From Gemmatimonadota bacterium (GTDB lineage Bacteria > Gemmatimonadota > Gemmatimonadetes > Gemmatimonadales > GWC2-71-9), in assembly GCA_039588295.1 (NCBI GenBank), contig JBDHAB010000006.1:32001-96000 (forward strand): a stretch of DNA of 64,000 nt. Reading direction: 5' to 3'. Made by a program: the position numbers. This document shows, in pieces, positions 21,001 through 24,000 of the stretch (the first letter of the stretch is position 1; each line of letters opens with the position of its first letter).

Positions 21001-24000
21001 TCTCGCTCGGAAGGCCGCCCATCCCGTCCCCAACTTCGGCCATATTCGAGACGCAATCACGGTCTCGCTGGAGCGCGTGCTCCGCAGAGCGCTTGCCTGG
21101 GAGCCGCGGGACCGATTCTCCACGTCGGCTGAGTTTGCCGAGGCCCTCTCCGCTCACGCGGCGAACTCTCCGCCAAATGGGCACGTGGCCGTGGCAACGG
21201 CCACGTCGGTAGCCCGCTCGATCGCCGTGCTGCCGTTTGCGAACATGAGCCCCGATCCGGAAAACGAGTACTTCAGCGACGGCATTGCCGAGGAGATCAC
21301 CAATGCCTTGGCCAAGATTCAGTCGCTGCACGTGGTGTCGCGGACCTCGGCGTTTGCGTACAAGGGGAAGGACCAAGACGTGCGGAGGATTGGTGACGCG
21401 CTCGGCGTGGGAACGGTGCTCGAGGGGAGCGTGCGGAGGGCGGGTCGGCGGCTCCGGATCACCGCCCAGTTGGTGAGCGTCACCGACGGTTATCACCTGT
21501 GGTCCGAACGGTATGACCGGGAAGCGGAGGATGTGTTTGCGATTCAAGATGAAATCGCCCGGAGCATTGCTGATGTGCTCGAACTCATGCTGACCGATGA
21601 GGAGAAGCGTGCTCTCGAGAAGCCTCCGACCGTGAACGTGGAAGCGTACGAGTGCTACCTTCGCGGTCGGTACTTTCTGCATCTGTTTCAGAAAAACACG
21701 GTTCGGCATGGCAGGGATATGTTTGCGCGAGCGATCGAGATCGATCCCAACTATGCCTTGGCGTTCGCCGGATTGGCCGACTGTTGCTCGTTTCTCTACA
21801 TGTACTTCGACGGCAGCGCGCCCATTCTCGAAGAGGCGGATGCCGCGAGCCGTCGGGCACTCGACCTGGACCCCGGCCTCGCCGAAGCCCACGCGGCTCG
21901 GGGCCTGGCCGTGGCACTGCGCCAGCGCTATGCGGAAGCGGAAGCCGAGTTCGAAGAGGCAATCCGCCTCAACTCGGCGTTGTTCGAAGCCTTCTACTTC
22001 TATGCGCGGACCTGCTTTCAGCAGGGGAAGCTCGAGTCCGCCGTCGAGTTGTTCGAGAAGGCCTGTGAAGTCCATGACGACTATCAGGCCCGACTGCTCG
22101 CCGCCCTGAGCTACGCCGGTCTCGGGCGGGCCGACGATGCGCGAGCAGCCTACCAGCGGGCGCTCCGCGCCACCGAACGACATCTCGAGCTCTCACCCGG
22201 TGACTGCCGTGCGCTGACACTCGGGGCGGGGTGCCTGGCTCGACTTGGCCGTGAGCGCGAAGCGATCGAGTGGTGTGATCGCGCGCTCGGCATCGATCCG
22301 GATGACCCCGTGGTGGTCTACGCGGTTGCATGTGTAGACGCCGTGCTCGGACGGACCGACGTGGCGCTCGACCGACTGGAGCAGGCCATCCACGGTGGAT
22401 TCGGGAACAAGAAGTGGATCCAGAACGACCCGGATTTTGCCACCGTCCGCGAGCACCCCCGCTTCCAGGAACTCGTGGCCGTAAGCCCGGACTAGCCGCC
22501 GAGCCGCGCACCCCCTATCCTACATATCAGACAGTTCTCGTCACTTTTCCCTGTCCGTTCAGGACCCTTATCGTCGGGAGACAATCGATGACACCACATC
22601 GGTGGAAGATGCTCCTCGGAGGGGCGGCTGTCGTAGCCGTCACCTCGGTCGGGTTGGCGGCGACCCAGTCGTCCCAAGCGAGGGCGGAAGCGACGGTCAC
22701 CGTCTACAAGACTCCCACTTGAGGGTGCTGCAACCAGTGGGTCGTGCACCTGCAAGAGAATGGGTTCGACGTGGAGACCGTGGAAGTGGATGGCCTGGCC
22801 CAGGTCAAGGCCGAACACGGCGTGCCACAGGCGCTGGAGGGATGTCACACTGCCGTGGCCGATGGATACGTGATCGAGGGTCATGTGCCGGCCGACGTGG
22901 TTCGGAAGTTGCTCAAGGAGCGACCCGAAATCGCGGGCGTGGCGGTACCGGGCATGCCGATTGGCTCTCCGGGCATGGAGGTGCCGGGCAGGACGCCTGA
23001 GCGGTACGACGTGGTGGCCTTCGCCAAGGATGGCAAGACAACGGTCTACGCACGCCGATAGACGTACGGACAATCAAAGGTGGAGGACAAGCGGAGCCCC
23101 AACCCGGACCAGCGGGGGGGCTCCGAAGGTTCATGGGCGGGCGTTGAAAGTCGCAGACCCTGTGGTGACGGCGGGTCCGCACCGGTGGCTGTTGCCACGC
23201 GAGCACGGCGCGTATGCGGAACTGTTGTTCCCCGTGGTGACGGGCTGGGCGAGTCGTTCACCCGACGTGGCAACCGTGCTCTTCACGGTGGCTGTGGTTG
23301 CGGGCTTCCTTTCCTATGAGCCGCTGATGGTTCTACGAGGAGTCCGGGGACGCCGGCTGCAGGACGCACTCGGTGAGACGGCCCACACGCAGTTGCTCCT
23401 GTTCCTCTCCGTCGGCACGGTGACCGGCGTGCTGGCAGTTGCCCTGACCGGGACCGCCACCCAAGTGGCAGCGCTCGTTCCGGCGGCCTGTGCGGTTGCC
23501 CTGCTTCCGTGGCTGTACCGCCACCGACTGAAGACCCTGGCGGCGGAGATCCTCGTGGTAGCGGCGTTCTCGGCGACGGTCTTGCCGCTGGCGGTCAGGG
23601 AGGCCGCCGATTGGCGGTTCGCCTGGACGGCCGCTGCCGTGTGGTGCGGCAGCTTCACTCTGGGCACGCTGGCGGTCCATGCGATCAAAGTGCGCCACAA
23701 GCAGACGGTAGGCGTGCGATGGTCGCGCCCGGCGGCACCCGCGCTCGCCCTTGTTGCGGTCGGGATCGGAGTCGTGGGACCCGTGCTGGGAGCGATTCCT
23801 GTGACTACGGGCGTGGCGCTGGTCGTGCCGGCCGTACTCGCGGGCCTGTTCAGCGTCCTGCCTGTACATCCACGGCGCTTAAAGAGAGTGGGGTGGTCGT
23901 TGGTTGTGGCGAACGTCATCACGCTGGTACTGCTGCTCCTCAGGTAGGCCGAGTGCGCCGACTGGGGCTTTCCGTATGGCCGAGATCGTACGCCGATGGA

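Follow-up and report, generated by a model that had tools for sequence, protein, structure and literature searches.

What is encoded by a reading frame that an in-frame TGA divides into two gene calls? This question is raised by a locus in a 64,000-nucleotide stretch of a Gemmatimonadota bacterium genome (the window), where calls g01158 and g01159 share one frame. The preliminary description had read them as a single exported DUF411/CopG protein in which the TGA replaces the first cysteine of a CxCC motif, and both points hold up. The frame at 22588-23061 on the plus strand spans 157 aa, contains a single TGA (codon 45), ends in TAG and matches Pfam DUF411 (PF04214) with an E-value of 5.8e-26 (90.4 bits against a cut-off of 27). 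PDB entry 6wis matches residues 37-155 (E 1.2e-31), with the TGA, in the context YKTPT-U-GCC-NQW, opposite the first C of NCGCC. A signal-like N-terminus is visible by eye in this and the other TGA genes. Searches at the gene, here called Sec-CopG, turned up neither an Rfam family nor a promoter or forward terminator; its features are the following.

22576..22581, plus strand: GGGAGA, a putative ribosome-binding site judged by sequence, 6 nt 5' of the ATG
22588..23061, plus strand: Sec-CopG (DUF411) gene, read through UGA; Pfam, PDB and AlphaFold/Foldseek matches
22588..22686, plus strand: signal-peptide-like N-terminus, residues 1-33 (basic, hydrophobic, A-R-A), recognized by eye, low pLDDT
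22720..22722, plus strand: in-frame TGA, predicted Sec45, by alignment the first CxCC position and the N-terminal position of a thioredoxin-type CxxC (U45-x-x-C48)
22726..22731, plus strand: Cys47 and Cys48 of U-G-C-C, invariant in 63 aligned proteins
22737..22753, plus strand: candidate bSECIS-type hairpin with 6-bp stem and apical loop CGUGC (22743-22747), 20 nt 3' of the UGA, G-U at loop positions 2-3; weak alone (z -0.1), with family-level support
22843..22848, plus strand: Cys86-His87, invariant
22882..22884, plus strand: His99 of EGHVP, likewise invariant
22954..22977, plus strand: Met123-x6-Met130, the second CopG/CutG copper motif (PMC8456105), present in 73/73 TGA genes and 41/41 Cys genes

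The predicted structure resembles that of CopG. The AlphaFold model, with U folded as C, has a pLDDT of 88, and its top Foldseek matches are the CopG structures 6wje and 6wis (rmsd 1.4 Å, E 1e-15, TM 0.92 on the target, 43% identity). Secondary papers describe CopG of Pseudomonas aeruginosa as containing a Cys-bridged four-copper cluster, with the first Cys among ligands drawn from CxCC and two Met, and as a proposed Cu(I)/Cu(II) oxidoreductase. The Mx6M motif is reported for both CopG and its Rhodobacter capsulatus homologue CutG, the latter being dispensable for copper tolerance (PMC8456105). Sec-CopG has the CxCC and Mx6M motifs (the former beginning with Sec if the UGA is recoded) and, as modelled, the fold of these two proteins; its N-terminus resembles an export signal. 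Thioredoxin and glutaredoxin structures rank next after CopG in Foldseek, and residues 37-76 give a weak Pfam Glutaredoxin match. These likenesses, with U at the nucleophilic position of a UxxC, the commonest motif in a 2026 table of 119 prokaryotic selenoprotein families (PMC13188914), would also suit a glutaredoxin-like periplasmic thiol/selenol oxidoreductase. Selenenyl-sulfide cycling between U45 and C48 would then act in the repair or reduction of exported proteins or on other soft metals, with copper binding secondary; the CopG ligand residues, however, are all invariant in the TGA genes.

The window genome encodes selenocysteine (Sec) machinery, with selA, selB and selD above cut-off and a tRNA-Sec gene (selC), and its selD and an FDH-like gene also contain in-frame UGAs with G-loop hairpins. 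The selA and selB open frames (469 and 726 aa) are free of TGA, and UGA is therefore not reassigned in this genome, which argues against its being read as another residue through Cys or Trp read-through or an altered code. Expression in two pieces might be suspected from the database entry of the 105-aa downstream piece (P0002) as a protein, but that piece has neither signal peptide nor CxCC. Since the hairpin moreover fits SelB recognition, both possibilities are extremely improbable. Across hosts, selA is present in all 40 TGA-form genomes of the same class and in 11/11 of Acidobacteriota, which says little because base rates are high (266/301 and 87/106, respectively). In Burkholderiales, selA is found in 4/4 TGA-form genomes against a base rate of 26/106. 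It also occurs in 35 of 38 pattern-scan genomes with a TGA gene. In one TGA-form genome, G332, selA, selB and tRNA-Sec were looked for and none was found. None of 120 database homologues carries a U.

The TGA form is widespread and confined to a single codon position. We collected 88 distinct TGA genes over all searches, the window gene included, from Gemmatimonadota, Acidobacteriota, Chloroflexota, Binatota and Proteobacteria (Burkholderiales and one Pseudomonadales record). The wide distribution claimed earlier is thus borne out for Gemmatimonadota, Acidobacteriota, Chloroflexota and Burkholderiales, with Binatota and the Pseudomonadales record as additions, while the accompanying figure of 119 genomes counts the matches listed and is no total. 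When a TGA pattern looser than that of the earlier scan was applied to named genomes, 39 of the 119 matches listed were DUF411 genes and 80 were chance. Sampled frequencies are 40/301 genomes in the window genome's own class, 12/251 in Acidobacteriota and 4/301 in Burkholderiales; a sample of 250 Chloroflexota genomes yielded no new TGA gene. The TGA falls on the first Cys in 73/73 genes, and of the 150 DUF411 matches listed for the class sample, 32 are cut short, in each case by a first-Cys TGA (counted by eye). Sec at the second Cys was considered and rejected: a metagenome scan gave 38 TGA matches, of which one was a DUF411 gene, a deleted pseudogene.

These data bear on the possibility that the window gene is itself a pseudogene, a redundant copy split by a TGY-to-TGA nonsense mutation. 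Such a mutation needs a single step and a Cys paralogue exists; the weak hairpin of the window gene and the undetected Sec genes of G332 also fit. Against it stand the confinement of TGA to one site across 88 distinct genes, the near-complete absence of TGA at the second Cys, and the sharing of the TGA among genomes of the same genus. The frames are intact, and none of the 73 TGA genes has lost EGH[VI]P, Mx6M or any of three further Cys. Purifying selection is evident 3' of the TGA, where synonymous changes outnumber replacement changes in 8/8 close pairs of TGA genes. With the SECIS constraint described below, decay of the gene is highly improbable.

The TGA genes share a downstream RNA signal at the family level. 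Under the bSECIS model (loop of 3-9 nt, G within the first two loop positions, spacer of 16-37 nt, stem of 4-16 bp; PMC13188914) the window gene has the expected shape, with loop CGUGC, spacer 20 and 6 bp. Its upper hairpin reaches -4.2 to -5.7 kcal/mol against an energy criterion of -7.5 kcal/mol or lower, the whole 60-nt region reaches -17.4 kcal/mol in a different fold, and shuffled sequence does as well as the hairpin (z -0.1). In the Cys paralogue, too, a 6-bp stem forms at this position, with a different loop. In the family, the upper hairpin alone reaches -7.5 kcal/mol or lower in 40/73 TGA genes versus 1/41 Cys genes. A hairpin with a G[GU] loop, a 16-37 nt spacer and -6 kcal/mol or better is found in 70/88 TGA genes and 4/44 Cys genes, and in 8% of 3000 random genomic TGAs. 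Ten of the 88 TGA genes, including all four from Chloroflexota, have no strict hairpin at -4 kcal/mol. Gly or Val stands at codon +8 in 56/73 TGA genes, Asp or Glu in 35/41 Cys genes, and the Gly codon there is GGT in 30 of 34 cases compared with 13% GGT in gene bodies. This shift from Asp/Glu to GGT/GTT is attributable to the SECIS loop formed there, whereas part of the stem also appears in Cys genes because the W-V-x-H-L codons are conserved. Within a nine-pair helix, 5 pairs have changed on both sides, at a covariation score reached by 0/500 shuffles, and slid controls score lower. Distinct registers occur, with spacers of 21, 20, 19 and 17 nt, and Burkholderiales TGA genes form an 11-bp hairpin. 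A test of phylogenetically independent pairs comprised three supported pairs only (p 0.5). Covariation, left open in the preliminary description, is thus present at family level, as compensatory pairs and as a contrast with Cys genes. By these comparisons a family-level bacterial SECIS is defined, showing synonymous constraint and covariation not seen in Cys genes. Overall, recoding is supported by the Sec machinery of the host, the conservation of TGA at one position, intact ligands and signal-like N-termini, and SECIS constraint and covariation, and the TGA almost certainly encodes Sec.

Gene neighbourhoods provide a more varied picture. As previously described, an all-Cys paralogue lies beside a copper ATPase: on contig C7, 32 nt behind a P1B Cu-ATPase gene, with 59% identity over 123 aa. 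The window gene is flanked by genes for a kinase, a YwiC-like protein and DinB, with no copA, cus or cueO/cutO linkage at the locus. At a distance of 2-8 kb, the opposite strand carries nosZ, nosD and ABC genes of a clade II nitrous oxide reductase cluster, which could suggest an accessory copper chaperone for that enzyme. However, nosZ, nosD and nosY are unmatched in every other fetched locus, including two 10-kb loci of the same genus; this proximity is merely local, as already suspected, and we rejected the accessory role as very unlikely. Four selA-positive Burkholderiales genomes carry the TGA gene inside a multicopper oxidase-copI-cusF cluster, which in one of them includes a CusRS-type pair; in a selA-negative genome a Cys gene occupies the same slot. 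The Burkholderiales genes thereby share with CopG/CutG their placement in a multicopper oxidase operon; in contrast to these, Sec-CopG is mostly a stand-alone gene. A P1B ATPase lies within about 5 kb of 1/60 TGA loci versus 6/41 Cys loci, and outside Burkholderiales copper genes are rarely near TGA genes. Scanning 105 of the 118 near neighbours of TGA genes, and for Cys genes 98 of 109 together with 3 extra ones, showed no conserved neighbourhood beyond lineage synteny. That TGA genes mostly stand alone, outside copper operons, fits the glutaredoxin-like oxidoreductase, but the four that fill the Cys-CopG slot of a copper operon argue against it, and we consider it rather unlikely.

The best overall reading, which we regard as probable, is that Sec-CopG is an exported selenoprotein that uses a selenolate ligand in Cu(I)/Cu(II) redox chemistry in the periplasm. 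When translation reaches UGA45, Sec-tRNA(Sec) would, on the bSECIS model, almost certainly be delivered by SelB sitting on the hairpin 20 nt downstream, and the signal peptide would take the chain out of the cytoplasm. The mature domain is predicted to adopt the CopG thioredoxin-like fold, arranging U45-G-C47-C48, C86-H87, H99 and M123/M130 around the site of the four-copper cluster in P. aeruginosa CopG, where they may bind metal. Given recoding, it is fairly probable that Sec-CopG interconverts and hands on periplasmic Cu(I)/Cu(II), as proposed for CopG, and that the selenolate, softer and a better nucleophile, tunes affinity for copper, redox potential or protection against over-oxidation from its redox-active N-terminal position. 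Without selenium, UGA would stop translation right behind the signal peptide, making expression selenium-dependent; the window genome retains a Cys paralogue in its Cu-ATPase operon. A quick tree of TGA and Cys forms needs 18 changes, at least three of them forced by supported branches. The chances seem evenly balanced that the family combines a natural selenolate-bridged multinuclear Cu cluster outside the cytoplasm, repeated Cys/Sec switching in which each Sec lineage builds its own SECIS at an amino-acid cost within the helix after the metal site, and selenium supply gating a copper-handling branch in soil and sediment bacteria. Our literature search found no described natural protein with a Cu-Se redox centre. 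Sec-CopG would place selenium at a copper-binding site. As the copper-cluster structure of the Cys form is solved, the family offers a direct natural comparison of S with Se at such a site, and EXAFS or NMR work on CopG, which has so far only a proposed mechanism, would gain a selenium probe.

The family, described earlier as unlisted, is absent from the catalogues consulted. DUF411, PF04214 and CopG do not occur in Table 1 of the 119 prokaryotic families (PMC13188914), nor DUF411 in the deep-Sep list and supplements (positive control included), and NCBIfam 20 has no model over cut-off (best selenoprotein model E 0.058); this catalogue coverage is incomplete. Identity with GOS_C was rejected, as model NF045500 does not match the gene. 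The sequence comparisons indicate a widespread selenoprotein family that the current catalogue lacks, a common and overlooked addition to the prokaryotic selenoproteome that annotation cuts in two. Recoding per se is not a new kind of biology, because new selenoprotein families appear regularly, and Sec in copper-handling proteins has precedent in CopZ-family, P1B-ATPase and SO_0444 selenoproteins (PMC13188914).

Among UxxC thioredoxin-fold selenoproteins (Grx, UXX-star, DsbA/DsbG-like and GOS_C/Omp28; PMC13188914), Sec at the N-terminal CxxC position and a bSECIS 16-37 nt downstream are shared with Sec-CopG. In contrast, Sec-CopG has additional putative metal ligands (a third Cys, Cys-His, His and two Met), and no NCBIfam model for any of these UxxC families scores above its cut-off. 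Predicted metal-handling selenoproteins (CopZ-family (2Fe-2S)-binding forms 1 and 2, E1-E2 cation ATPase, SO_0444 Cu/Zn efflux, mercuric transport protein and the exported SaoB/SaoC/SaoX) likewise have Sec in place of a Cys believed to contact a soft metal, and some are exported; their folds are unrelated to that of Sec-CopG, and none is described in the PMC13188914 table as a multinuclear copper cluster ligand. Compared with CopG/CutG, Sec-CopG differs in the UGA at the first Cys with its downstream SECIS and in the exchange of Asp/Glu for Gly/Val at codon +8, which clearly exemplifies how an RNA signal can remodel protein sequence; the convergent hairpin registers should be useful for bSECIS models. 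A further difference lies before the Cys-His pair, where Gly is found in 31/73 TGA genes versus 0/41 Cys genes.

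The Sec-CopG gene is one open frame broken by a TGA at the first Cys of its CxCC motif. The feature is real, and is very probably a selenoprotein form of CopG that is exported, widespread and unlisted.

Features of the probable Sec-CopG gene, and a further UGA gene of the host
22588-23061, + strand: Sec-CopG gene, a single 157-codon frame ending in TAG, its sole interruption a TGA
22720-22722, + strand: in-frame TGA, codon 45
+ strand: GGGAGA, with the ATG starting 6 nt downstream
22737-22753, + strand: hairpin, loop CGUGC, -5.7 kcal/mol
22840-22842, + strand: Gly85, preceding the invariant Cys-His
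Contig C3 of the host genome (G000), near 46447 (reverse-strand count), - strand: FDH-like gene with in-frame UGA and G-loop hairpin

The read-through protein matches Pfam DUF411 (E 5.8e-26) and PDB 6wis (E 1.2e-31), with the TGA aligned to the first C of NCGCC. The closest structures to its AlphaFold model (63-sequence alignment, U modelled as C, pLDDT 88) are CopG 6wje/6wis at an rmsd of 1.4 Å, followed by thioredoxins and glutaredoxins. The host carries a single paralogue, 59% identical across 123 residues, with Cys where the window gene has TGA; a copper-translocating P1B ATPase lies 32 nt ahead of it (TIGR01511, 608 bits; cut-off 397). The preliminary description had given the TGA-broken frame, its DUF411 and 6wis matches and the Cys paralogue accurately.

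In an earlier set of 73 TGA genes the TGA always stands at the first Cys, preceded by at least 36 open codons and followed by about 110. All 73 retain three additional Cys along with EGH[VI]P and Mx6M, and have, by eye, a signal-peptide- or lipoprotein-like N-terminus; the Sec-CopG protein is predicted to be exported. Among 150 of the 254 DUF411 matches listed for the host's class, Gemmatimonadetes, 32 are short frames, every one due to a first-Cys TGA (counted by eye). Metagenomes scanned for a second-Cys TGA yielded 38 stretches, with DUF411 in one alone (L295), a pseudogene with a large internal deletion and no hairpin. Downstream of the TGA, synonymous differences exceed replacement differences in 8 of 8 close pairs. 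Gly precedes the invariant Cys-His in 31/73 TGA genes, in all four Burkholderiales TGA genes and in 0/41 Cys genes, and Gly85 of the window protein may leave space for selenium.

The host genome encodes selA, selB and selD above cut-offs together with tRNA-Sec, and UGA is not reassigned there because selA and selB contain no internal TGA. Selenocysteine would almost certainly be inserted at UGA45 by SelB. Further selenoproteins of the same genome are selD, whose in-frame UGA has a G-loop hairpin, and the FDH-like gene, with a GGUCU-loop hairpin 18 nt 3' of its UGA. Genomes with the TGA form have selA in 40/40 cases in the host's class (base rate 266/301), 11/11 in Acidobacteriota (87/106) and 4/4 in Burkholderiales (26/106), the last four genes being 81-94% identical. 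Sec use is nearly general in the first two groups, both little studied, and given these high selA rates further unlisted selenoprotein families may hide in them. Among 38 pattern-scan genomes (39 loci, two from one assembly) selA is present in 35; of the others, G318 has tRNA-Sec and G327 has selB and tRNA-Sec. The third, a 3.2-Mb genome (G332), has a TGA gene with an imperfect hairpin (L106; spacer 17, loop GGC), and selA, selB and tRNA-Sec were all looked for in it and none found. The non-Sec readings of the TGA gene, taken jointly, are highly improbable. G332 is a real exception: an orphan gene, a lesion or an incomplete assembly.

The TGA genes as a family carry a hairpin of bSECIS type, which the accessible text of a 2026 review describes as a loop of 3-9 nt with G within its opening two bases, frequently as G[GU], 16-37 nt past the UGA (PMC13188914). 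The final set, with identical sequences removed, comprises 88 TGA genes and 44 Cys genes (40 picked across families of the own-class list, plus the paralogue and three of a single Burkholderiales genome). A contiguous hairpin of this type at -6 kcal/mol or better is found in 70/88 TGA genes versus 4/44 Cys genes, at -4 kcal/mol in 78/88 versus 13/44, and at 8% of random TGAs of the host genome (n = 3000). Spacers between UGA and loop in the first 73 TGA genes are 21 nt (49 genes), 20 (7), 17 (7) and 19 (1). The commonest hairpin reads UGGGUG-GGU/GUU-CACCUR, and the loop is therefore codon +8 from the TGA, which encodes Gly or Val in 56/73 TGA genes and Asp or Glu in 35/41 Cys genes. GGT accounts for 30 of the 34 Gly codons there (13% in gene bodies) and GTT for 14 of the 22 Val codons (14%), while CTA, 2% of Leu codons, occupies +10 in 16/73 TGA genes and pairs with the stem's U. 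In an ungapped alignment 78% of the cells of a nine-pair helix are paired, versus 33-51% in slid controls. Five pairs changed on both sides, a count that kinship may inflate and that comes from a structure read from the same sequences; the covariation score, which related sequences can likewise inflate, was reached by 0/500 shuffles, and an independent-pairs test gave p 0.5 with three supported pairs only. The stem is partly dictated by the conserved W-V-x-H-L, and that part occurs in Cys genes too.

Alternative lineages have a shifted 7-9 bp hairpin with spacer 17 and a GGU loop built from Trp-Val codons, and the Burkholderiales TGA genes an 11-bp stem. The energy of the window gene's own hairpin is no better than that of shuffled sequence; its loop variant, CG[UG]GC, is common to 7/73 TGA genes, and the paralogue also folds a stem at this position, with loop CGAAUAU. 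A strict G[GU] hairpin is absent from four Chloroflexota TGA genes (L010, L023, L037, L046) and a few others; the four perhaps use a lineage-specific SECIS. Their genomes nonetheless have selA.

The TGA form was earlier placed in at least 119 genomes. Its wide spread holds for Gemmatimonadota, Acidobacteriota, Chloroflexota and Burkholderiales, but 119 does not count the genomes that carry it: among the 119 stretches listed in a scan of named genomes with a looser pattern, 39 are DUF411 genes by tblastn and the others chance. Record names assign the 39 to Gemmatimonadota, Acidobacteriota, Chloroflexota (4), Binatia, a delta proteobacterium and a Pseudomonadales MAG. Genome samples covered the host's class, Acidobacteriota, Chloroflexota and Burkholderiales, with Rokubacteria and Actinomycetota outside them. 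DUF411 occurs in 240 of 301 own-class genomes and the TGA form in 40, confirmed with tblastn from 65 pattern matches, 25 being judged off-frame. The form is present in 12/251 Acidobacteriota, 4/301 Burkholderiales and 1/251 Chloroflexota genomes, the last being the genome at the sample's centre. These counts are lower bounds because the search pattern demands P at -2 and W at +6. The whole-sample tallies take in genomes marked unpublished (G018, G022, G029, G133, G362, G387, G626, G869), which contribute no TGA gene and no alignment row. Two genomes hold two TGA copies each (L169 and L170; L032 and L083).

The window gene is preceded by a Ser/Thr kinase-TPR gene and followed by YwiC-like and DinB-like genes, with two further features nearby.

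Neighbourhood of the probable Sec-CopG gene
14924-16156, + strand: cysteine desulfurase-like gene of VC1184 type, above the TIGR01976 cut-off and lying 6 kb upstream
25160-30936, - strand: clade II (general-secretion type, TIGR04246) nosZ, nosD and ABC ATPase/permease genes, 2-8 kb away

The nos link is only local, as already cautioned in the preliminary description, because nosZ, nosD and nosY have no match in any other fetched locus, including two same-genus loci sharing the kinase. Around 60 TGA genes and 41 Cys genes, viewed to a distance of up to 5 kb per side, shared neighbours reflect lineage synteny only; a P1B ATPase is nearby in 1/60 TGA versus 6/41 Cys loci (Fisher p 0.017, kin not independent). 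An Acidobacteriota-sample locus (L249) has an upstream kinase 76% identical to the window's, through either transfer or mis-binning. Single TGA genes adjoin a multicopper-oxidase-like gene (L254), a DsbA-like gene (L078) and a YeeE/YedE sulphur-transport gene (L189).

In one lineage, Burkholderiales, 4/4 TGA genes lie inside a multicopper oxidase-copI-like cupredoxin-cusF cluster, one adjoining a heavy-metal two-component pair. Because a selA-negative genome has the multicopper oxidase-copI-cusF cluster with a Cys gene (L310), the Sec form can occupy CopG's slot in a copper operon. Sec-CopG is probably a copper-redox selenoprotein, in which copper would be bound with selenium taking part. A selenolate is softer and more acidic than a thiolate and better resists over-oxidation. 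A glutaredoxin-like role is a less likely reading, to which a weak Pfam Glutaredoxin match (residues 37-76) and the place of U45 as N-terminal residue of CxxC are relevant, the usual Sec position in thioredoxin-fold selenoproteins in the portion of PMC13188914 available. The copper-redox reading fits what the accessible parts of PMC7558416, PMC8456105 and PMC8872213 say of CopG: a periplasmic, thioredoxin-like protein whose CxCC and two Met hold four coppers, and which converts copper between Cu(I) and Cu(II) and may pass it on.

The window gene is present in databases as a 105-aa piece, U appears in none of 120 database homologues, and no NCBIfam 20 model scores above cut-off for the protein. 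DUF411, PF04214 and CopG are absent from the whole of Table 1 (119 families) in the partly accessible review PMC13188914. The available portions of the deep-Sep paper (PMC12013277, with four supplements, where a positive control was found), the GOS paper (PMC2398784) and the Haft and Gwadz preprint mention no DUF411/CopG selenoprotein; BSepDB, by the text available, draws on previously reported families only (PMC13326102). A full-text literature search, with subscription journals outside its scope, found no paper linking selenocysteine or selenoproteins to DUF411/CopG. In all likelihood Sec-CopG is unlisted, in a comparison made without Haft and Tolstoy 2025, Deng et al. 2026 and Peng et al. 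2016. It is a variation on known kinds, since existing predictions place Sec at a metal-touching Cys of CopZ-family, P1B-ATPase and SO_0444 proteins (PMC13188914, accessible text).

Repeated switching between Sec and Cys is likely. In a quick, poorly resolved tree (143 rows, 117 columns) Sec and Cys rows are intermixed, and the best tree needs 18 changes, at least three of them forced by supported branches. One supported sister pair joins a TGA gene (L182) with a Cys gene (L201) whose 7-bp hairpin has a GGU loop and spacer 17; no other Cys gene reaches -7.5 kcal/mol. Because this Cys gene retains the hairpin, it suggests a Sec-to-Cys reversion with a remnant SECIS.
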